A stretch of 64,000 nucleotides of DNA from Candidatus Woesearchaeota archaeon. Lineage in GTDB: Archaea; Nanobdellota; Nanobdellia; SCGC-AAA011-G17; JACPIM01. The notes below the pieces were generated by a model. It had not been told where the DNA came from and did not search any database. It saw nothing but the letters and a program-made list of their open reading frames with translations. Of this stretch, positions 5,018 to 56,316 are shown one piece after another (the first letter of the stretch is position 1; each line of letters opens with the position of its first letter). The DNA lies in assembly GCA_016188045.1 (NCBI GenBank), contig JACPIM010000002.1:108737-172736 (forward strand). Direction: 5' to 3'. Made by a program: the position numbers and the translations under genes.

Positions 5018-5110
5018 GCGCCGATAGTTTAGTGGTTAGAATCTCGGCCTTCCAAGCCGATGACCTGAGAAACAGTATACTGTTCAGGATTTCAAATCTC
5101 AGTCGGCGCA
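5018..5110 (+). tRNA. tRNA-Gly(TCC) with a 21-nt intron at position 53/54 (5070-5090)
   Basis: Acceptor stem GCGCCGA/TCGGCGC, anticodon loop CTTCCAA, T-stem CTGAG/CTCAG; intron forms a BHB with central helix CCTG/CAGG. Confidence 0.93.
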
Positions 5111-27237: not shown

Positions 27238-27324
27238 GCCCTGATAGCTCAGTTTGGCGGAGTAGCTGCTTCGTATTAAAAAAGAAAAAGCAGTTGGTCG
27301 CAGGTTCAAATCCTGCTCAGGGCT
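27238..27324 (+). tRNA. tRNA-Thr(CGT) with a 13-nt canonical intron (27276-27288)
   Basis: GCCCTGA/TCAGGGC acceptor stem, GCTGC/GCAGT anticodon stem, T-arm GCAGG-TTCAAAT-CCTGC, U73. Confidence 0.88.
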
Positions 27325-29657: not shown

Positions 29658-29737
29658 ATTATTTCCGAAATTTCAAACTATTTAAAAAGATTAATCTATA
29701 ACCAACAATAATAAGTTACGGTGCCTATTTGTAAAAT

Positions 29738-29850
29738 GTGGGCAACTAACCAAGGTTCCCACGCGAAGCGCAGTACAGCTTGGAACGTGTACGGTCTTGA
29801 CTGCCAAGTTCGAAATGGGTTTGGGTAGAACCGTAGCTATGGTCGCCCTA
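29738..29850 (-). rRNA. rrf: 5S rRNA (stand-alone)
   Basis: Reverse complement GGGCGACCATAGC...CCCATTTCGAAC...AGTCAAG...GTACTG...GGGAAC...GTTGCCC; helix I GGGCGAC/GTTGCCC; ends approximate. Confidence 0.92.
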
Positions 29851-45612: not shown

Positions 45613-46104
45613 GTGGGAAAATTTGAAGAACGTTTAGGAAGAATAAAGGAAGTGACTTTAACAAGACCTTATGTTTATTATTTTATTTTAATATTTCTTG
45701 TTTATTTAATCATAAATATTATTGTAAATAAGGTTTATATAACAGCACCAACATTGCTAACAAATAACCTTAAGATTATTATCCCATATTTAATATTTAC
45801 CATCTTTATTGCTTTTTTAGTGGCTTTGAATATTAATCTTACTGTTAAAAAGTTTAAAGATTTAAGAAAAGTAAAAAAGGAAAGTGGATTAACATTTATT
45901 GGTATTTTTGGTGGTGTTTTAGGTGGTGCTTGTCCTAGCTGTTTTGTTGGATTATTTCCTGCCTTTTTAGGTTTGTTTGGAATTACAGCGACATTAAGTA
46001 GTTTGCCGTTTTTTGGTATTGAAATATTAGTTGGCTCTGTTATATTTTTAGTTATAGGTATGGTTTTATTAACCAGGGATAATGTTTGTAAAATTAAGAA
46101 ATAG
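45613..46104 (+). CDS. Four-TM membrane protein with CxxC
   Basis: GGACPSC in a TM segment; paralog at 56817. Confidence 0.75.
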   Translation: MGKFEERLGRIKEVTLTRPYVYYFILIFLVYLIINIIVNKVYITAPTLLTNNLKIIIPYLIFTIFIAFLVALNINLTVKKFKDLRKVKKESGLTFIGIFGGVLGGACPSCFVGLFPAFLGLFGITATLSSLPFFGIEILVGSVIFLVIGMVLLTRDNVCKIKK

Positions 46105-47548: not shown

Positions 47549-48088
47549 ATGAATAACAAAACTTTAGGATTAATTTTAATTGCAATAGCTTTAATTTTCA
47601 CAATACCGTTAATTATTTTTAAAATCCAAGTTAATGATTTAGTTGCAACTACGATGGAATTAAGCGGCGGAACTTGCATTAGAAATGGTATTTGCGAACA
47701 TCAGCAAAGCAATTTACCAATCTATATAGGTATAATTATCATAGTTCTCACTCTATCATTGGGTTTATACCTCCTATTTTTTGAAAGCGGCCAGAAAGTA
47801 TTACAAGAAACGCATGAAAACATAGTAAAAAGATTAGAAGAGACTAAAAAAGAAAGAAGTAAAAATGAGAAATTTGATATATTACTAAAAGGCTTAAATG
47901 AAGATGAAAAAAAAGTAATAACCGCAGTTAAAGAACAGGATGGAATAAAACAAAATACTTTAAGATTAAGAACAGACATGTCTAAATCCAAATTAAGTCT
48001 TGTTTTAACTGAATTAGAAAAAAAGAACCTCATTAAAAAAGTACCAGAAGGAAAAACCAATAAAGTTTACATCAAAACAGGTTTATAA
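47549..48088 (+). CDS. Two-TM membrane-tethered winged-helix regulator (paralog of 44220)
   Basis: TM-loop(CIRNGICEH)-TM, then EQDGIKQNTLR...MSKSKLS. Confidence 0.8.
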   Translation: MNNKTLGLILIAIALIFTIPLIIFKIQVNDLVATTMELSGGTCIRNGICEHQQSNLPIYIGIIIIVLTLSLGLYLLFFESGQKVLQETHENIVKRLEETKKERSKNEKFDILLKGLNEDEKKVITAVKEQDGIKQNTLRLRTDMSKSKLSLVLTELEKKNLIKKVPEGKTNKVYIKTGL

Positions 48089-48862: not shown

Positions 48863-49531
48863 ATGGAAAAAAATGAAAAGTTTTTAGTTAGTTTGCTAGT
48901 AATAACACTGGTTATAGGGGTTTTTAACCAAATACAGCTTTTTTCTATGAAATCTGATGGCAGTATTGGCATTAATAATCCACTAAGTAGTGTTGGTAAT
49001 TTGCCTACGGGCGTATCTTTAGTGTCCGCCAGTGTTATTCCTGGTGGTGTGCCAAAAATATATGGCAAAGAACTGAATGTTAAATATGATGACATAAGCC
49101 CAAATGATCCTCAATTAGCAAATCAAAAAATTGCTGTTTTGGGTAATCTGGATAAAACAATAACGTTAACAGGAGATGATTTACAGAGATATATTAGAAT
49201 CGCCTCACAAATTAGTTGCGAATATTGTTGTGGTGCTAAATCAATAATATTTAGTACAGGACAGCCAGCATGTGGATGTGCTCACAGTTATGCAATGAGA
49301 GGATTAGCCAAGTATATGATTACAAAACACGGTAAAGAAGTTTCTGATGATGAGATTTTAAGCGAGATGGCCAAATGGAAAACTTTGTTCTTCCCGGGCG
49401 TAATGCAATCTAAAGCAGATGCACTAAAGCAAAATGGTATAGAATTTAATTACGTTAACTTGGGGAGCAACAAATACAGAGGCATAGAGAAAGGTCAAAG
49501 TTCCAGCGGTGGAATGGTAGGAGGTTGTTAG
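48863..49531 (+). CDS. Membrane-anchored Cys-rich protein ending in MVGGC
   Basis: N-terminal TM, CEYCCG...CGCAH cluster, C-terminus GGMVGGC; GGAGG RBS. Confidence 0.85.
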   Translation: MEKNEKFLVSLLVITLVIGVFNQIQLFSMKSDGSIGINNPLSSVGNLPTGVSLVSASVIPGGVPKIYGKELNVKYDDISPNDPQLANQKIAVLGNLDKTITLTGDDLQRYIRIASQISCEYCCGAKSIIFSTGQPACGCAHSYAMRGLAKYMITKHGKEVSDDEILSEMAKWKTLFFPGVMQSKADALKQNGIEFNYVNLGSNKYRGIEKGQSSSGGMVGGC

Positions 49532-49532
49532 T

Positions 49533-49787
49533 ATGGAAAAGAAAGATTATTTTATTATTTCTATGGTCACCCTATTAGCCGTAGTTTCGATTGTGCAGGC
49601 ATTTCAGATAGGATCGCTTAAACCTTCAGGTATAATAACCGGAAACGCTGTTGGTGGAGCTATTGATACAAGCGGATGGACAGAAACTGAGAAAATGAAT
49701 TATGAACACCATGGTATCTTGCCAGCAAGATTACAGGGAAGCGTAAAACAAAATGCAGCAAGCCCGACAATGGTCGGAGGATGTTAA
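49533..49787 (+). CDS. Small membrane-anchored protein ending in MVGGC
   Basis: TM ending VQAFQI, MNYEHHG motif, C-terminus PTMVGGC. Confidence 0.85.
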   Translation: MEKKDYFIISMVTLLAVVSIVQAFQIGSLKPSGIITGNAVGGAIDTSGWTETEKMNYEHHGILPARLQGSVKQNAASPTMVGGC

Positions 49788-49788
49788 A

Positions 49789-49995
49789 ATGAAAACTAAT
49801 CTACTTATGACAATTTTAATTATCGCCTTACTGGTATTAAGCGCAGTACAGGCATTTCAAATTAATACCATAAAAAGCGGATCTGGTGGTAGTATAGTTA
49901 AGTCTAGTAATAGCGAAGACAGTTATCCTAGTCAAACCCAGCAAACTACTAGGTATACACCAACAAGTTCTCCTCAAATGGTTGGTGGTTGTTAA
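49789..49995 (+). CDS. Small membrane-anchored protein ending in MVGGC
   Basis: TM ending VQAFQI, S/T/Q linker, C-terminus PQMVGGC; start set at MKTNLL. Confidence 0.85.
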   Translation: MKTNLLMTILIIALLVLSAVQAFQINTIKSGSGGSIVKSSNSEDSYPSQTQQTTRYTPTSSPQMVGGC

Positions 49996-51185
49996 TGAAT
50001 AAACTTTTTTTTATTTTATTTTTTATTTTATTTTTAATTCCGGTTAGTTATGCTGCTGATCAAGCAATCATATATAAAAATTCTGCTTGCGGTCATTGTA
50101 ACGTTTATCTTAAAGAACTTAATGATTTCTTAACCAGAAATAATATTGAAAATGTTGTCGAGAAAAATATATTAGAAGATCAAAAAGCACTGGTAGAGTT
50201 AGATAAATTTACTCAAGAAAAAAATATTCCATATGAATTACAAGGCCATATGGTTGTTGTTATTAATAACTTAATAATAGAAGGCCATGTTCCTATACAG
50301 GTTTTAGAAGAAATTTTTGAAAAATACCCCGATAAAAACTTTCCAAATCTAGTTTTATTCCAGGATTCAATGGATGAAAATGTTAAAACATATACCTTAT
50401 TAGATGAAAATGGCGATATAAAAGAATGTAATGTTGATAGTTTAGAAAATTGTAAAAATATTAAAACAAATAATAAGATTACAGGCAATGTTGTTAAAGA
50501 TGGTTTGATACAAAAATCCTTGCCTTTTTTAGTTATATTTAATGGTTTGTTTGCAGGTATTCACCCATGTACAATAAGTGTTTTATTGTTCTTTATAGCT
50601 TTCTTGTTTACACTAAGAAGATCGAGAGCAGGAATTTTTAAAGTTGGATTAAGTTATATCTTAGGTATATTCCTTGCATATTTTGGAATAGGTATAGGAA
50701 TTTTTAAAGCGGTTTCATTTAGTAATAACCCGCATTTTGCAGCAAAAATAGGAGCACTGTTAGTTTTATTGCTAGGTTTATTTAACATAATAGCTTTTTT
50801 TACAAAGAAAAAGAATGTTTCACTAGGAATACCTTCATCTAGTAAACAATATATTGTAGATTTAATCCAGAGAGCCTCTGTGCCAGCAGCTTTCATTGTC
50901 GGATTATTTGTTGGTATATGCTCTTTTGGATGCACAGCAGGGATTTATTTATCAATAATGAGTATGTTATTTGTAAAAGCCAATTACTTGCAAGGATTAT
51001 TTTATTTATTCCTTTACAACTTAATGTTCATATTGCCATTAATAGTAATCTTGATTTTAGCAGCCAATAAAAAAGTTGTAGAGAAAATAGAAAAATTAGA
51101 ACTAGCCAAAAAAGATTATATTAAATTAGTTGCAGGATTTTTAATGATAATCTTGGCCATAGCGATATACTTGATTTCAACATGA
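49995..51185 (+). CDS. CopG/DUF411-like thioredoxin-fold domain fused to a CcdA/DsbD transmembrane domain
   Basis: YKNSACGHC...IIEGHVP; then GIHPCT and CSFGCTAGIY in TM segments. Confidence 0.75.
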   Translation: MNKLFFILFFILFLIPVSYAADQAIIYKNSACGHCNVYLKELNDFLTRNNIENVVEKNILEDQKALVELDKFTQEKNIPYELQGHMVVVINNLIIEGHVPIQVLEEIFEKYPDKNFPNLVLFQDSMDENVKTYTLLDENGDIKECNVDSLENCKNIKTNNKITGNVVKDGLIQKSLPFLVIFNGLFAGIHPCTISVLLFFIAFLFTLRRSRAGIFKVGLSYILGIFLAYFGIGIGIFKAVSFSNNPHFAAKIGALLVLLLGLFNIIAFFTKKKNVSLGIPSSSKQYIVDLIQRASVPAAFIVGLFVGICSFGCTAGIYLSIMSMLFVKANYLQGLFYLFLYNLMFILPLIVILILAANKKVVEKIEKLELAKKDYIKLVAGFLMIILAIAIYLIST

Positions 51186-51727
51186 AAAAATATTATATAT
51201 TTGGAACTTTAGGATTTTTAATTTTGATTAGTTTTTACTTTTTAATTTTAAGCATTTTTAATTCATATTCTCATGCTATTGAACAATTCAAAGAAATGTG
51301 GTATTGGGTTTTATTATTGTCTTTAGGATTTGGAACACAAATAGGTCTCTATTTTTATATGAAAGAGTTAAGTATAGCTAACACAACATCTATGGCAAGT
51401 ACGGCTGGTTCAAGCGCTGTATCAGGAACATCTATGGTTGCTTGCTGTGCTCACCATTTATCAGATATTTTGCCTTTTTTAGGATTAACAGGGCTTGCTA
51501 TATTTTTAAATAAATACCAGTTATTTTTTGTTTTATTAGGTGTATTCTCAAGTGCACTTGGAATAATCTATATGTTAAATATTATAAAAAAACATCACTT
51601 TAAGCAGATTAAAAACAACTTTATGAAAAAAATTCTTAGTTTCAACTTAGATTTCTTATTTAAAACAAGTTTATTAGTCTCGTTAATAATATTATCATTT
51701 ACAATCATGATAAAGGTGAGAGCATGA
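51182..51727 (+). CDS. Membrane protein with a CCAHH motif
   Basis: SMVACCAHHL in a multi-TM protein. Confidence 0.75.
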   Translation: MKKYYIFGTLGFLILISFYFLILSIFNSYSHAIEQFKEMWYWVLLLSLGFGTQIGLYFYMKELSIANTTSMASTAGSSAVSGTSMVACCAHHLSDILPFLGLTGLAIFLNKYQLFFVLLGVFSSALGIIYMLNIIKKHHFKQIKNNFMKKILSFNLDFLFKTSLLVSLIILSFTIMIKVRA

Positions 51728-51951
51728 ACAATGAAAACCTCTTTTATATATTCCTCTTGATTATAGCTGTAGTCTTGTTGATCTATGGTGTTTGGTATAC
51801 AACCACATATAGAGGAACTAGTTACCAAAATGCATTGAATGTTGAGAATAAAGAAGATATATGTGCAACTCCAGAAGGCTATACAGACCAAGAATGGAGA
51901 GAACATATGGGCCATCACCCGGATAGATATAAAGATTGTTTGGGAGGTTAA
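51724..51951 (+). CDS. Small TM protein with C...HMGHH...C metal-binding-like motif
   Basis: DICATPEGYTDQEWREHMGHHPDRYKDC. Confidence 0.75.
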   Translation: MNNENLFYIFLLIIAVVLLIYGVWYTTTYRGTSYQNALNVENKEDICATPEGYTDQEWREHMGHHPDRYKDCLGG

Positions 51952-51952
51952 A

Positions 51953-52117
51953 ATGTTCGGTTTATTTAAAAGAAAGGATCCAATTTGCGGAATGAAAGAA
52001 GAAAAAGGAAAAGGAATAGAAAATAATGGAAATTGGTTTTGCTCTAATTCATGTTCAGAAAAATATGAAAAAGCAAGAAGCAAAATAATTAACAAAAAAC
52101 CAGGATGTTGCCATTAA
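51953..52117 (+). CDS. YHS/TRASH-like small metal-binding protein
   Basis: KDPICGM...FCSNSC...GCCH; GGAGG RBS. Confidence 0.85.
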   Translation: MFGLFKRKDPICGMKEEKGKGIENNGNWFCSNSCSEKYEKARSKIINKKPGCCH

Positions 52118-52452
52118 AGATGATAGAATTAGTTTTATTTTTAATTTTAGTATTATTTTTCATATTTATTATTTTAAAGCCTTACATAGTGAAACTTACA
52201 GGAAGATTCTGCTCAATTTGCTCCTCAGTTAGTTTAACCTGGATTATTTTGCTGTTATTAAAAATTTTAAACTATAACATTGATCCATTAATTGTTGGAA
52301 TATTGATGGGCGGTAGTGTTGTTGGAATAATGTATAAGTTTGAAGATTATGTTAAAAAACATAACAAAAAATTATTGCTATTTAGGATTGTTTTATTACT
52401 TATTGGCTTCCTAGTAGTATATTCCTTAATAAAATATTTATGGGAACTTTAA
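52105..52452 (+). CDS. Membrane protein with CxxC
   Basis: FCSICSSVSLTW and LMGGSVVG motifs. Confidence 0.7.
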   Translation: MLPLKMIELVLFLILVLFFIFIILKPYIVKLTGRFCSICSSVSLTWIILLLLKILNYNIDPLIVGILMGGSVVGIMYKFEDYVKKHNKKLLLFRIVLLLIGFLVVYSLIKYLWEL

Positions 52453-52453
52453 A

Positions 52454-52579
52454 ATGATATTGTTAATTATTTTTTTAATAATACTGTTAATAATCATAGT
52501 TACATTATTAAGTTTAAGAAAAAACAAAAAACACAGACTAATGAGAAAATTACAGGAAAAACTTGAAAATTGCTGTTGA
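52454..52579 (+). CDS. 41-aa TM peptide ending ENCC (possibly the frameshifted tail of the previous gene)
   Basis: Manual translation MILLIIF...KLQEKLENCC. Confidence 0.5.
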   Translation: MILLIIFLIILLIIIVTLLSLRKNKKHRLMRKLQEKLENCC

Positions 52580-52709: not shown

Positions 52710-53912
52710 ATGGGAATATTTAAATATTTTCAGAGGAATAAAGAAAAAAGTAAACTAATTAGAAAAGTTTCTCTAGAAGAAATTACTTACGATATCGAGA
52801 AGCTATTTAATGAATTAAAAGATAAAACTAAAATAATTAAAGAAGAGATAAATAAGAATCTAATTTTAATGATTAATGATATAAGAACCCAGATTAATGT
52901 ATTAAAATCCATAACCTTAGAAGAAAGAAGGGAAGATGAAAGATTAAAAAAAATAGTTCTGGAAAATCTCAAGTTCTATATAGATCATCTTGAAAAATTC
53001 ATAGGGGAGTTTGAGAAAATTGAGAATTTGGAGGTAAAAGAGTATATCTCTGAGATTCAACTTATTTTAGATAATTTTTATAAAAGATCCTTTAAAAGCT
53101 ATGAGAAAGCAACAATCTTAATTGGAGAAGAAATCAAGCAGATAAAAGATATTATTAAAAACTTTAATAAGGATTTTGTTAAAATACTACAAGAAAATGA
53201 GGTTGTTTTCATTAAAATGAATTCTATAAAGGAGTTTAAAGAATTGAATAACAAAATTAAAGATTTGGGAAAGATTAGAGAAGAGATAGATAAGCAAACA
53301 AATATTTTCAGAGAGTCAAGAATAAAGCTGGAAAAACAGAAGTCTTTTTTTGAGGAAGATTATCACAAATTTAAGCAGAGTGAAGAATTTAAAGAGGATT
53401 TATTGCAAGAGCAAAAATTTAAGGAGGAATTAAGCAATCTTAATAATAAAATTAAGGAGATTAAAGAGAAAATTGATATAAAACTTTTATTGAAGTGTTA
53501 TCATAATGACAACAAATATAATGAATTGCTAAAAAGTTATAGGGAAAATTTTATGGAAGCATTAGAAAGTGATGAAAATCTTGAAATTGTAAAATTGGTT
53601 GAAAAAGCCAGTTATACAAACATAAAAAAAGAAATTTTCGATTTAAAAGAAAAGATTGAAAAAATGAAAATAAGAAATAATAAACCTTCTCAAACCAAAT
53701 TAAAAATTTTCGAGGACAGGATAAAAAATGTTGATTTAGATATATCTGGGTTAAAAGAAAAAGAAATGACAGAAATAAAAAAATCTAAAAGGTTTAATGA
53801 AATGGAAACTTCTTTAGTAACCGAGAAGGCTAATAAAGCAAAGGATATATTTGAAAATATTGAAATCATAAATCCAAATGAAACTCAGGGAAGAAAAACG
53901 AATTGCTGTTAA
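52710..53912 (+). CDS. Coiled-coil hypothetical protein
   Basis: K/E-rich heptads; ends TNCC. Confidence 0.75.
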   Translation: MGIFKYFQRNKEKSKLIRKVSLEEITYDIEKLFNELKDKTKIIKEEINKNLILMINDIRTQINVLKSITLEERREDERLKKIVLENLKFYIDHLEKFIGEFEKIENLEVKEYISEIQLILDNFYKRSFKSYEKATILIGEEIKQIKDIIKNFNKDFVKILQENEVVFIKMNSIKEFKELNNKIKDLGKIREEIDKQTNIFRESRIKLEKQKSFFEEDYHKFKQSEEFKEDLLQEQKFKEELSNLNNKIKEIKEKIDIKLLLKCYHNDNKYNELLKSYRENFMEALESDENLEIVKLVEKASYTNIKKEIFDLKEKIEKMKIRNNKPSQTKLKIFEDRIKNVDLDISGLKEKEMTEIKKSKRFNEMETSLVTEKANKAKDIFENIEIINPNETQGRKTNCC

Positions 53913-53931: not shown

Positions 53932-54006
53932 TCTATGAACGATATAGCCTTAGAATTTGATGATTTTAGGTTATTTTTCAGTCATCGTTCACAACCAAAA
54001 ATATAT
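53932..54006 (+). repeat. ~75-bp imperfect palindromic element, copy B
   Basis: TGAACGAT...ATCGTTCA outer stem; homologous to 44729-44803. Confidence 0.8.
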
Positions 54007-54031
54007 TAATATGATAATGTGGGAGGTTAAT

Positions 54032-54235
54032 ATGAAAAAAGTAATAAAAGTTACAGGAATGCACTGCTCAAGCTGCGAATTTTTAATAAAAGACTCGTTA
54101 AATGATCTAGGAATTAAAGCAACAGCAGATCATAAAAAAAATGAAGTAATAATAGATAACTTTGATCCTAAAAAAATAGACTTAGAAAAAGTTTATAAAG
54201 CAATAGAGGAAAACGGGTATAAAATTGTAAAATGA
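54032..54235 (+). CDS. copZ: CopZ-like HMA metallochaperone
   Basis: VTGMHCSSC motif; GGAGG RBS. Confidence 0.85.
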   Translation: MKKVIKVTGMHCSSCEFLIKDSLNDLGIKATADHKKNEVIIDNFDPKKIDLEKVYKAIEENGYKIVK

Positions 54236-54735
54236 GAAAAATATTATTTACCATTTTAGTTGTAATCTTGCTTAGTTTCTTCTCTGTTTTTGCTCAAGAT
54301 AATCATGAAAATAAAATTGAAGAAGGAAAAAATCTAGTGCAGAGTAGTATTGATTGCAATGATTTAACAGAAGAACAACTTGAAGCCATAGGAGAATATT
54401 ATATGGAACAAATGCACCCGGGAGAAGCCCACGAAATAATGGATAATATGATGGGCGGAGAAGGTTCTGAATCTTTAAGACAAGTGCATATAAACATGGC
54501 AAAAAGAGTGTATTGTAATGATAAAATTTATATCGGATATGGAATGATGAGTGGTGGCATGATGAATGGTTATAATATGCCATATCAAGGAATGATGAAT
54601 AATTATAACTATGGCGCTTACGGATATTCATGGAATGTCTTTGGCGTACTTTACTTTTTTTTACTTTTGGGTTTGATTATCATTGTTGCTCTTGTTATTA
54701 TAAAACTATTAAAAGGGAATATTAAAAAATGGTAA
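54232..54735 (+). CDS. Exported Met/His-rich membrane-anchored protein
   Basis: MEQMHPGEAHEIMDNMMGG and GMMSGGMM; C-terminal TM. Confidence 0.8.
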   Translation: MRKILFTILVVILLSFFSVFAQDNHENKIEEGKNLVQSSIDCNDLTEEQLEAIGEYYMEQMHPGEAHEIMDNMMGGEGSESLRQVHINMAKRVYCNDKIYIGYGMMSGGMMNGYNMPYQGMMNNYNYGAYGYSWNVFGVLYFFLLLGLIIIVALVIIKLLKGNIKKW

Positions 54736-54941
54736 AAATCAAAAATAAAGAAAACAATACCTTGTTAATTGTTTTAGTTTTATTAGCAATATTTCTCTTT
54801 TTTAGTTTTGGTGGTAATATGATGCTAGGTACTGGTTATGGAATGATGGGAAACAGTATGTTTGTATTTGGCCATATTTTCATGATACTTTTACTTGTGC
54901 TAATAGTGTGGCTAGTTATATCTTTAATAAAAGACAGGTAA
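54729..54941 (+). CDS. Small two-TM protein with a Met/Gly loop
   Basis: GGNMMLGTGYGMMGNSM between two TM helices. Confidence 0.7.
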   Translation: MVKIKNKENNTLLIVLVLLAIFLFFSFGGNMMLGTGYGMMGNSMFVFGHIFMILLLVLIVWLVISLIKDR

Positions 54942-54948
54942 AACAAAA

Positions 54949-55866
54949 ATGAATATTTTAAAATTAAGAATTACAGGAATGCATTGTGAAGCTTGCGAAA
55001 AAACATTAAAAAAAGCACTATCAAAGCTAGATCATGTTAAAGATATTGATATTAAATATAGTAATGAACTAGCTAAGATAAGTTACAACCCTGAAATCAA
55101 TGTAAACCAAGCAATAGATATAATAAGGCAGGTTGGTTATGACGCTACTGTTGCTAATGGTGATTATTCTTCAGATAATATAAATATTAAAGGATATTTA
55201 AAAAACTTAAAAAATAAGGAAAAACTAGAAGGAAATTTAATTTATCTTGCTTTAGGCACTTTATTGGTATTGGGTATATTGGAAGTTATCGCGTATTATG
55301 GTTTTTTTATCGATATCCCTAATTTTTTTAATAGGTTTGGTTATTATATAATCTTCTTGATAATTAGTGTGGTAGTTTGCGGTACATCAATATGGCATAT
55401 AAAAGCATATGGAAACTCATTTAGTTGCATGAGTGGTATGATGGTTGGCATGACAATAGGCATGATAAGTGGATTTTTAATTGGTATGATAGTTGGCGCA
55501 ACAAATGGAATGTTTATTGGTTCTGTTGCAGGAATTTTGATAGGCATGTTTGCTGGTAGCTGGACAGGTAAATGTTGTGGTGTAATGGGTATAATGGAAG
55601 GCATGATGGCGGGTTTAATGGGGGGTTTAATGGGAGCTATGACAAGTTTAATGTTACTAAATGATAATCTTAAGATAATAATCCCAATATTAGTAACCTC
55701 CTCAGTTATGATACTAATAGGGCTAGACTACATGATATACAAAGAAACAGTAGACAAAACATTTAATAAACCAGGATTTATGCAGTTTATTACATTTTGC
55801 TTTATAGTTACAATGGCATTAACATTTTTAATGATATATGGTCCGAAATCATTACTATTTCAATAA
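54949..55866 (+). CDS. HMA domain fused to a Met/Gly/Cys-rich multi-TM domain (putative Cu transporter)
   Basis: GMHCEAC; SCMSGMMVGMTIGM; KCCGVMGIMEGMMAGLMGGLMGAM. Confidence 0.8.
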   Translation: MNILKLRITGMHCEACEKTLKKALSKLDHVKDIDIKYSNELAKISYNPEINVNQAIDIIRQVGYDATVANGDYSSDNINIKGYLKNLKNKEKLEGNLIYLALGTLLVLGILEVIAYYGFFIDIPNFFNRFGYYIIFLIISVVVCGTSIWHIKAYGNSFSCMSGMMVGMTIGMISGFLIGMIVGATNGMFIGSVAGILIGMFAGSWTGKCCGVMGIMEGMMAGLMGGLMGAMTSLMLLNDNLKIIIPILVTSSVMILIGLDYMIYKETVDKTFNKPGFMQFITFCFIVTMALTFLMIYGPKSLLFQ

Positions 55867-55875
55867 GGAGGAAAA

Positions 55876-56316
55876 ATGGCAGAAGAAGTAAAAATAAAAA
55901 AAAGAACAATATTCACGATTATAGGAATTGTATTAATCTTAGGTTTTGTTTTATTTGCATTTAAAAATATTCTTTCAACCAAGGGTAATGAGATTACAGG
56001 AGATTTAGTTAAAGGCGGAGAAGCCGGTTCCAATAAAGTCATAAATGAAGGAGATACACAGATTGTTAATTTGGGGGTTGCTAATTATAACTATGATCCC
56101 AATACCATAACAGTTGAATCTGGAAAAAAAGTAAAAATAATTGGTAATATGAATCAATTGCAAGGTTGCCTAAGGGCATTTAGAATTCCAAACCTTGGGG
56201 TTTCGAAAGTATTTAACTCAAATGATAATGTGTTGGAATTCACTCCAACATCAAAAGGAACATTTGGTTTTACATGTAGTATGGGTATGGGTACAGGAAC
56301 TTTAATTGTTAAATAG
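55876..56316 (+). CDS. Membrane-anchored cupredoxin (CupA-like)
   Basis: YDPNTITV...GC...FTCSMGM. Confidence 0.85.
   Translation: MAEEVKIKKRTIFTIIGIVLILGFVLFAFKNILSTKGNEITGDLVKGGEAGSNKVINEGDTQIVNLGVANYNYDPNTITVESGKKVKIIGNMNQLQGCLRAFRIPNLGVSKVFNSNDNVLEFTPTSKGTFGFTCSMGMGTGTLIVK

Follow-up and report, generated by a model that had tools for sequence, protein, structure and literature searches.

Why should three neighbouring genes with unrelated bodies code for proteins that end in exactly the same five residues? The question is raised by a 64,000-nucleotide stretch of DNA from a Candidatus Woesearchaeota archaeon (assembly GCA_016188045.1, contig JACPIM010000002.1, positions 108,737 to 172,736), referred to here in its full length as the window, in which three consecutive genes of the plus strand at 48863–49995, of 222, 84 and 68 amino acids (aa) and with one base between each, all finish in Met-Val-Gly-Gly-Cys and a stop codon (MVGGC-stop). 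The genome comprises 1,021,983 bp in 24 contigs, with 30.4% G+C and 92.55% completeness, and the relatives of the window genes carry the labels Woesearchaeota, Pacearchaeota, Nanoarchaeota and other DPANN archaea. The sequencing runs listed as containing the stretch are DNA from groundwater metagenomes, with no RNA run among them. An original prediction, made from the letters of the window, had seen here membrane-anchored proteins with a C-terminal Cys arm, forming an extracytoplasmic carrier system coupled to a CcdA fusion encoded by the next gene. When the sequence was read again, the three genes were found as described, with the same codons in their endings and with N-terminal hydrophobic helices that carry NQIQL, VQAFQI and VQAFQI, and of the ideas put forward then, that of a tethered carrier or ligand arm is still the best reading.

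Occurrence and conservation of the MVGGC ending

Of the 3,716 open reading frames (ORFs) in the whole genome that reach 40 aa, a GGC end is found in 3, which are exactly the three genes of the array. The DNA pattern ATGGTNGGNGGNTGYTRR, which stands for MVGGC-stop, is present in 73 of 301 genomes of the phylum with 160 matches, mostly two to four per genome within about 1 kb, and the same pattern reversed gives 1 match in the same 301 genomes. That the three endings came to be shared by chance is excluded.

A word-indexed search with the 222-aa protein as query returned 1,985 proteins at E ≤ 1e-3 among 2,177 candidates, and all of the best 120 of these 1,985 homologues (53–96% identical) have the MVGGC end. 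When 1.84 billion cluster representatives were searched exhaustively with a profile, 308 matched at E ≤ 1e-3, of which 254 reached 1e-10 and 136 reached 1e-30. The tallies for diverse representatives refer to the best 150 of the 308 profile matches, at 50% clustering: 125 end in Cys, 116 in [VI]-G-x-C, 72 in MVGGC and 27 in QVGGC, so that position −5 is Gln in 27 of the 150, and it is Trp, Ile or Phe in a few others. Several of the 25 representatives with a different last residue stop within or just past the conserved core, or are shorter than 170 aa, and look like fragments.

Genome by genome, the profile of the large protein is positive in 76 of the 301, of which 72 also contain the DNA pattern; among the 225 genomes without the large protein the pattern is found in 1, and that match is a 13-codon chance frame. 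The four genomes that have the profile and lack the pattern carry variant tails, namely QVGGC (G245 and G029), QVGDC on the large and QVGSC on the small protein (G065), and IVGEC (G199). The general ending is therefore [M/Q]-V-G-[G/A/S/D/E]-Cys-COOH, with the terminal Cys as its most constant element. The module is kept in 340 species-level genomes. Three loci (L081, L089 and L090) lie in metagenome-assembled genomes labelled Bacteroidetes, Gammaproteobacteria and Methanosarcinales, and these odd labels are probably binning or labelling errors rather than cases of gene transfer. In the literature searched (open-access full text and bioRxiv), no description was found of the MVGGC motif or of a DPANN copper/CcdA/DUF411 system.

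Codon use and the ribosome-binding site

The original prediction had itself added the caveat that the Gly-Gly codons double as the ribosome-binding site (RBS) of the next gene, and taken to its end this caveat becomes an alternative explanation, according to which the shared ending is a by-product of the GGAGG that each following gene needs in a compact operon. In the window, tail 1 (49514–49531, plus strand) reads ATG GTA GGA GGT TGT TAG and has its GGAGG 7 nt ahead of the next ATG, tail 2 (49770–49787, plus strand) reads ATG GTC GGA GGA TGT TAA, and tail 3 (49978–49995, plus strand) reads ATG GTT GGT GGT TGT TAA, without GGAGG.

Codon use was followed in 233 distinct ORFs chosen for their GGC end, in which G-G-C is therefore fixed by construction; the preceding residues are M in 227 and V in 231. 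All synonymous codons are in use: for Val, GTT in 83, GTA in 74, GTC in 44 and GTG in 30; for the first Gly, GGA in 124, GGT in 47, GGG in 31 and GGC in 31; for the second Gly, GGT in 71, GGA in 70, GGC in 63 and GGG in 29; and for Cys, TGT in 136 and TGC in 97. GGAGG is present in 124 of the 233 tails, GGA is the commonest first Gly codon and, by simple ORF calls over 41 loci, a same-strand ORF starts at most 20 nt past the stop in 59 of 85 tails; in many of them GGAGG probably doubles as a Shine-Dalgarno site. However, M, V and C are conserved though they fall outside any RBS, 109 of the 233 tails have no GGAGG, the motif is retained in the 26 of 85 tails that have no such start nearby (25 as MVGGC, 1 as QVGGC), and none of the 150 MVGGC-stop matches listed has TGG in place of the stop, which would read through to Trp. 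The tails without GGAGG and those without a downstream start refute the RBS by-product as a sufficient explanation, and the chance that it accounts for the ending is practically negligible.

The ending is instead, to judge from the sequences, under protein-level selection, because the endings of the homologues are conserved, all the synonymous codons are used, and the tails are kept where there is no downstream start. The synonymous codons of the three window genes had already been taken as a hint of this, which the MVGGC end of 120 out of the best 120 homologues now bears out.

The tail-bearing proteins

The large protein (222 aa, 48863–49531, plus strand) is built of a transmembrane helix, a disordered spacer, a helical Cys/His-rich ectodomain, a short linker and MVGGC-COOH. 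In alignments of 25 and of 97 members, C119, E120, C122, C123, C137, G138, C139, A140, H141 and S142 are invariant, as is the end M218-V-G-G-C222. The AlphaFold2 (AF2) model built on the 97-sequence alignment, with a mean predicted local distance difference test score (pLDDT) of 88.5 and a predicted template-modelling score of 0.73, has a helix at residues 3–31, a disordered stretch at 40–52 and then the helical ectodomain. The tail region is modelled with confidence rather than as disordered (pLDDT 94 for residues 201–210, 86 for 211–220 and 67 for 221–222), which suggests that in this protein the short-linked tail may pack on the ectodomain. A co-fold of the large ectodomain (residues 55–222) with type-B residues 30–84 (see below) scored 0.03 against a mark of 0.32, in a single run without controls, and is given no weight either way. 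The Cys-rich ectodomain is unmatched among the families of Pfam and NCBIfam, the sequences and folds of the PDB and the named Atlas clusters, and the predicted fold is new; none of the three MVGGC proteins has a Pfam match.

As regards topology, the fraction of Lys and Arg is 0.19 before the transmembrane helix and 0.07 in the 15 residues after it (119/120 proteins), and this excess supports an N-in/C-out arrangement, also compatible with the model, in which the MVGGC proteins cross the membrane once at the N-terminus and have the remainder outside the cell. Cytoplasmic N-tails rich in His or Cys are a minority: of 119 proteins, 16 have three His or more there and 7 have CC. A [Q/N]-x-x-Q motif, which in the window is NQIQL, is found in 57 of 104 large proteins.

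The small proteins fall into two types, defined on 31 small ORFs in 21 loci. Type B, represented here by the 84-aa protein (49533–49787, plus strand), accounts for 12 of the 31 and has a transmembrane helix ending in VQAFQI, a Met/His motif, a linker and MVGGC-COOH; the invariant residues of a 20-sequence alignment, W49, E53, M55, Y57, H60, G61 and P64, belong to that motif. Type C, represented by the 68-aa protein (49789–49995, plus strand), accounts for the other 19 and consists of a transmembrane helix, again ending in VQAFQI in the window, a low-complexity S/G/T/Q/P linker and the tail, often as P-x-MVGGC, which is also its form here; an alternative 80-aa reading frame of this third gene starts at an upstream ATG at 49753 and overlaps gene 2. 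Throughout 123 small proteins there is no second Cys after the transmembrane helix (0/123), the distance from helix to tail is 21–65 residues with a median of 43, over a segment rich in S/A/G/T/Q/P, and in 87 of them the helix has Q-x-x-Q at its outer end. The type-C proteins of loci L040 and L041 have an additional Met/His motif, ETYE-x-MMARMHPDQ, in the linker, and there would therefore be more than two types of small-protein body. In 20 of the 20 loci that were fetched with about 8 kb per side, the large gene is followed by one to three small tail genes, and of 80 further species-level loci all 80 have the large gene with its tail and 76 an adjoining small tail gene.

These same features allow the small proteins to be read in another way, as precursors of secreted or modified peptides, metallophore-like or signalling, with an N-terminus that is a signal cleaved at V-Q-A/F-Q and with the large protein as a maturation or receptor part. 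V-Q-A does fit the −3/−1 pattern of signal peptidase, and the type-C bodies are short and of low complexity. However, F-Q-[IL] after the putative cut is conserved, and the related N-Q-x-Q-L of the large protein lacks an A-x-A site, so that a membrane helix motif fits better; in addition, the large protein bears the same tail, and no maturase or exporter of the kind that serves ribosomally synthesized and post-translationally modified peptides (RiPPs) was seen in the neighbourhoods. We consider a peptide precursor very unlikely.

In four genomes the Cys-rich core is found in a different protein, of 403–412 aa, where it is fused to a multi-transmembrane domain with ICPVCQS and ends in ...LEAQ, without the tail. 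Each of these tail-less variants is followed directly by a small protein with the ending NLPSMVGGC (4 of 4), so that the tail, it would seem, can be supplied in trans. For a joint action of the tail with the Cys/His-rich domain, this pairing may be taken, at the level of sequence, as the strongest evidence obtained. A relationship between the variant's membrane half, with its CPVC, and a CPSC protein of the window (45613–46104) was suspected and is not supported by BLASTP (E 0.43), which leaves a motif resemblance only. The CPSC protein, a membrane protein of 163 aa with GGACPSCFVG in a transmembrane segment, belongs to a family (c22) that recurs in related copper islands.

The CopG/CcdA fusion encoded by the next gene

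The gene after the array (398 aa, 49989–51185, plus strand) starts within the end of gene 3, and the gene that comes after it (51182) overlaps it by ATGA; given the 1-nt gaps and these overlapping ends and starts, all of them can be regarded as one translationally coupled operon. The product had been described as a fusion of a CxxC thioredoxin fold with CcdA, a description that BLASTP, hhalign and Foldseek uphold and make more exact, since the thioredoxin-fold part is CopG/DUF411-like and has CGHC. The order of domains is a signal peptide, an outside domain of CopG/DUF411 fold with the CGHC, and a six-helix membrane domain of the CcdA/DsbD_TM type. Residues 1–115 are 29% identical to a DUF411 neighbour (BLASTP E 6e-16), with the CGHC aligned with the CGCC of CopG; in Pfam the DUF411 score (PF04214) of the fusion is 18.1 bits, below the cut-off of 27, while free neighbours elsewhere, with CxCC, pass it. 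C34, C37, P193, C194, C311 and C315 are invariant in 31 relatives.

The membrane half was followed by several routes. The hhalign comparison of the 31 relatives with 19 DsbD_TM neighbours gave 99.1%, with E 4.8e-19 over 208 columns, and placed HPC on SPC and FGC on AC. PF02683 gave E 4.3e-4 for the fusion in a whole-genome search and no match at E up to 10 against the isolated membrane half, and BLASTP of that half against one DsbD_TM protein was not significant (E 5.8). On this profile comparison it is a divergent member of CcdA/DsbD_TM. With the AF2 model of the fusion (pLDDT 82.6) as query, Foldseek ranks 1–5 are the CopG structures 6WJE/6WIS (E 2e-3 to 6.5e-3, prob 1.00, target template-modelling score 0.60–0.63), and rank 6 is 5VKV, the nuclear magnetic resonance structure of CcdA (E 0.56, target template-modelling score 0.48). 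The fusion has 237 relatives at E ≤ 1e-3, mostly of 385–395 aa, and a precomputed PF02683 is given for 3 of the 120 listed.

In the published account, CopG is thioredoxin-like, holds a Cu4 cluster by way of CxCC and two Met, and takes part in anaerobic copper resistance (PMC7558416). In the present system it is a direct partner, either as a free lipoprotein after the array or as the fold of the window's next gene; unlike CopG, the window domain has CGHC and is joined to CcdA in one chain. None of the MVGGC proteins is itself a CopG.

Gene neighbourhoods in two subfamilies

The loci were divided into a first tier of 21, including this window, and a second tier of 16, with neighbourhood tallies that rest on simple ORF calling and BLAST clustering. 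In tier 1, a regulator with two transmembrane helices, a DUF7343 domain and an outside loop with two Cys, often with a His as well, lies directly upstream in 20 of 21 loci; that of the window (47549–48088, plus strand; Pfam DUF7343 E 6.6e-12) has the two helices around an outside loop with Cys-x5-Cys-x-His (GGTCIRNGICEH) and a cytoplasmic winged helix. From their sequences, these two-helix, winged-helix regulators look like transcription factors that would sense thiols or metals on the outside, a design unusual in archaea. A second copy of the regulator family (167 aa, cluster c2) is present in the window at 44xxx–45xxx. After the array there is a free DUF411/CopG lipoprotein (E 3e-23) in 12 of the 21 loci, the window fusion not being counted. 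A signal-peptide membrane protein with AHCPLC is found in 15 of 21 and proteins ending in CC[KR]xW or DCCKEW in 16 of 21, together with HMA or P-type ATPase genes in 13, Met-rich proteins in 9 and cupredoxin-like proteins in 8.

In tier 2, the ending is extended to [N/D]-L-P-x-MVGGC in both the large and the small proteins, and the company they keep consists of a membrane-anchored triple CxxC thioredoxin (13/16), a DsbD_TM/CcdA protein (13/16), a small WCPAC thioredoxin (7/16) and a cupredoxin (7/16), with DUF411 in 2 of 16 and HMA in 1 of 16. In 5 of the 16 tier-2 loci (among them L063, L064 and L065), a BlaI/CopY-type repressor (Penicillinase_R, E 5e-17) and a BlaR1-like M56/M48 protease lie divergently upstream and replace the two-helix regulator. 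The fusion of the window joins in one chain both types of partner that are seen apart in the two subfamilies. A scan for the motif together with its neighbourhoods, which the original prediction had put forward with an expected link to copA/ccdA, thus finds 73 of 301 genomes with the motif, 13 of 21 tier-1 loci with HMA or P-type ATPase genes and 13 of 16 tier-2 loci with CcdA. The coupling to CcdA stands in the sense of a tie to the CcdA/thioredoxin pathway and to copper genes; the fusion itself is a variant architecture and not the rule. A 555-aa protein of locus L042 (11781–13445, minus strand) is a fusion of HMA (E 4.7e-07), DsbD_2 (E 1.6e-30) and cupredoxin-like domains (E 5.7e-17), and provides, in these archaea, one more case in which copper-binding domains are physically joined to the DsbD superfamily. 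Genome-wide, PF02683 is matched in 58 of 76 system-positive genomes and in 100 of 225 others; related genomes not being independent, this is an enrichment and not a proof, and such figures overstate the support that they give.

The tier-2 context brings in a serious rival, in which the thiol would be loaded with sulfane sulfur or held in a mixed disulfide, or would serve at the surface as a sacrificial buffer against oxidants or electrophiles, recycled by CcdA and thioredoxin, with the Cys-rich domain as the site of loading or unloading. The pairing of tier 2 with the triple thioredoxin and CcdA, and almost never with copper genes, speaks for it, as does the CopG-like domain of the window, which has the canonical redox CGHC and not the CxCC of the copper cluster; the alternation of Met and Gln at position −5 is likewise unlike that of a Met ligand. 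SoxY, of sulfur oxidation, ends in GGCGG. The MVGGC proteins, with a single exposed Cys on a flexible arm, recall the SoxY principle, in which one reactive Cys close to the C-terminus is borne by a mobile peptide arm and visits the sites of its partners (PMC5336275). In both, an extracytoplasmic Cys follows Gly-Gly on a mobile arm; unlike SoxY, the Cys of MVGGC is the very last residue, the proteins are anchored by a transmembrane helix instead of forming soluble heterodimers, the model is helical, and no Sox enzymes were found nearby. In a whole-genome search, the best SoxY match (PF13501) has 14.3 bits (E 0.031), elsewhere on the contig and below the 28.4-bit cut-off, and SoxZ (PF08770) has no match in the genome, which is 92.55% complete. 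The original prediction had cited SoxY as a parallel; homology or a kinship of pathway with it is not supported, in view of the helical fold, an ending in GGC-COOH and not GGCGG, and the lack of SoxY or SoxZ above the cut-off, and the likeness is one of design only, an analogy. The rival is also opposed by the position of tier-1 loci, including this window, within copper islands, by an invariant cluster of five Cys and a His, more typical of metal sites, and by the neighbourhoods, in which no sulfur-oxidation enzyme was found; on the whole we judge a redox or sulfur carrier unlikely.

The neighbourhoods bear equally on the idea that the ending is a C-terminal tag, by which a dedicated enzyme would lipidate the Cys, cross-link the protein to the envelope or to a partner, or trim the tail, the original prediction having already mentioned a modification or sorting tag. 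An invariant terminal pentapeptide on unrelated bodies, extended to [ND]-L-P-x-M-V-G-G-C in one subfamily, has the look of a recognition peptide, the residues of V-G-G-C recall those of a lipobox, and the operon has several conserved membrane proteins of unknown function. However, known sorting signals mark many dispersed proteins, and here there are two to four per genome in one operon. The PGF-CTERM, PEP-CTERM and LPXTG signals consist of a motif, a hydrophobic helix and a basic tail; unlike these tripartite signals, MVGGC is followed by no transmembrane and basic segment, the Cys being succeeded by the stop in all 150 DNA matches listed, and this genome has three GGC-ending ORFs that are adjacent. 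There is, besides, no candidate enzyme common to both subfamilies, whose best shared neighbours are thioredoxin-fold proteins and CcdA, and the tail-less variants with their small tail proteins point to the Cys-rich domain as the partner. A tag is, in our estimation, distinctly unlikely.

Comparison with known carriers

Other systems provide partial models. In the Scs system of Salmonella and other bacteria, copper stress is tied to thiol reduction in the envelope, with a DsbD-like transporter, ScsB, and thioredoxin-fold proteins that bind Cu(I), ScsC and ScsD (PMC10907172). The present loci resemble it in having a CcdA-type domain and thioredoxin-fold partners beside copper genes; Scs differs in being bacterial and periplasmic, and in being without terminal-Cys tethered proteins or a Cys-rich helical domain, and the homology is only the generic one of DsbD_TM and thioredoxin.

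In the mer system (MerP, MerT and the tails of MerA) and among the MxCxxC copper chaperones, a soft metal is passed between Cys thiols on mobile segments, both across the membrane and along it. The operon described here also encodes several membrane proteins whose Cys pairs lie within the membrane, as well as presumably cytoplasmic proteins with CC at the end; unlike mer, there is one Cys per arm and not a pair, and no homology was found, with no search aimed at mercuric reductase. The Cys-Gly-Cys tail of Erv2 and the Gly-Cys-Sec-Gly tail of thioredoxin reductase are flexible arms that ferry redox equivalents from a buried centre to outside partners, and the MVGGC proteins share with them a flexible C-terminal tail with Gly and Cys; an Erv1 chain appears at Foldseek rank 11. 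Finally, unlike the ubiquitin-like and ThiS/MoaD sulfur carriers, small cytoplasmic proteins that end in GG, these proteins have a transmembrane helix, a body outside the cell, and a helical model without beta-grasp, and they have no Pfam match.

A possible mechanism

The reading that we favour is that of a tethered extracytoplasmic thiol arm which CcdA keeps reduced and which, together with the Cys-rich domain, handles Cu(I) or a different thiophilic cargo, and we hold it to be a leading possibility that falls just short of being probable. It is suggested by the sole exposed Cys, the flexible linker, the CcdA and thioredoxin neighbours, the copper genes and the pairing of the tail-less variant with a small tail protein, and the link with copper by the DUF411/CopG, HMA/P-type ATPase and cupredoxin neighbours together with the Met/His motifs of type B. 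The steps of such a mechanism could have been: (i) the terminal thiol would be the working group; (ii) it would dock on the Cys/His cluster in the ectodomain of the large protein, either in cis, from that protein's own tail, or in trans, from the small ones; (iii) a thiophilic cargo, most likely Cu(I), would be swapped at this cluster by ligand exchange; (iv) the small proteins with their long linkers would serve as fishing lines that capture or deliver cargo near the membrane; and (v) the arm and the cluster would be kept as thiols by electrons that pass out through CcdA to a thioredoxin-fold domain, which in this window would be the fused CopG-like domain with CGHC. The net role would be the buffering and hand-over of copper, or of a soft metal, at the surface of a cell without the periplasmic multicopper oxidase route. 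It is a more tentative suggestion that single-pass proteins, with a terminal Cys on a long tether as their only functional element, read by a new Cys/His-cluster domain and recharged by CcdA, may constitute an unrecognised class of carriers in DPANN archaea.

Several points weigh against a copper arm of this kind. The cargo, whether copper, sulfur or electrons, is deduced from the neighbouring genes only. Gln at position −5 in 27 of 150 representatives means that Met is not a required ligand, which weakens the earlier proposal of Met and Cys as Cu(I) ligands, and the swap of Met and Gln, as far as sequences tell, would fit a residue of packing or recognition better than a thioether ligand. Tier 2 has hardly any copper genes (HMA in 1 and DUF411 in 2 of 16 loci), and in that purely thiol-redox context a redox or sulfur role therefore fits equally well. 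Lastly, 18 of the 76 system-positive genomes have no PF02683 match, the kinship of the genomes inflates co-occurrence, and the clusters come from crude ORF calls.

Other genes of the window

Downstream of the fusion, and on the plus strand, the proteins with CCAHH and HMGHH that had been noticed from the sequence are present: the former (51182–51727) is a membrane protein with an intramembrane CCAHH whose family occurs in 8 of 21 tier-1 loci and has no Pfam match, and the latter (51724–51951) is a transmembrane protein of 75 aa with EHMGHH, from a small family (c31) that recurs in related loci. The ORF that follows (51953–52117, plus strand), for a 54-aa Cys-rich protein with DPICGM..., had been called a YHS protein; the ORF is there, and the YHS/TRASH-like label is a tentative one, the only match being to the treble clef of DUF2116, below threshold (E 0.0017). 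Next comes a membrane protein of the CC-tail family with an FCSICSS motif (52105–52579, plus strand), in two adjacent ORFs of 115 aa and 41 aa, the second ending in ENCC; the two frames lie one base apart, in relatives the protein is in one piece, about 148 aa long and with CC[KR]xW at its end, and the split could be real, a frameshift or an assembly error. A highly charged, coiled-coil-like protein of 400 aa (52710–53912) ends in ...TNCC. Endings with a Cys pair thus recur in the island, as ...TNCC, as ...GCCH (51953–52117) and as ...ENCC (52454–52579), in proteins that are presumably cytoplasmic, and among relatives DCCKE(W) ends 8 of 9 members of one family and CC[KR]x[WS] 7 of 8 of another. 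Neighbours of copper type occupy 53957–56316 (plus strand), namely an HMA protein (CopZ-like), Met-rich proteins, a membrane protein with HMA and Met-rich parts, and a cupredoxin-like protein; the ORF at 54949–55863 matches HMA with E 2.9e-13, and Cupredoxin_1 was found for one member of the neighbour cluster. Pfam gave no match for the CPLC, CCAHH, CHNxC and CC-tail proteins of the operon, nor for the 412-aa tail-less variant.

Away from the island, the window contains a 5S rRNA gene and two tRNA genes, at 29737–29850 (minus strand), 27238–27324 (plus strand) and 5018–5110 (plus strand); Rfam finds both tRNAs and ARAGORN a tRNA-Ser only.

Significance for DPANN archaea

The tail-bearing proteins, the predicted fold of the ectodomain and the terminal motif are new, and CopG, CcdA, the thioredoxins and the HMA proteins are of known kinds. 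In other words, there are here two or three new protein families and a new predicted fold, none of which is in Pfam, NCBIfam, PDB or the literature searched. The genomes of DPANN archaea are tiny and hold many unannotated genes, yet this module is kept in them, and the MVGGC motif offers a simple handle for its annotation and for its detection in metaproteomes.

If the proposal is true, it would add a new way of building an extracytoplasmic carrier arm, it would show how copper or thiol chemistry can be handled at the surface without a periplasm or a multicopper oxidase, and it would give a concrete candidate client to CopG and to archaeal CcdA, both of them poorly understood. The MVGGC proteins would then be a surface analogue, tethered to protein, of a small-molecule thiol or of the SoxY arm, shuttling copper, sulfur or electrons between the membrane of the symbiont and its surroundings.

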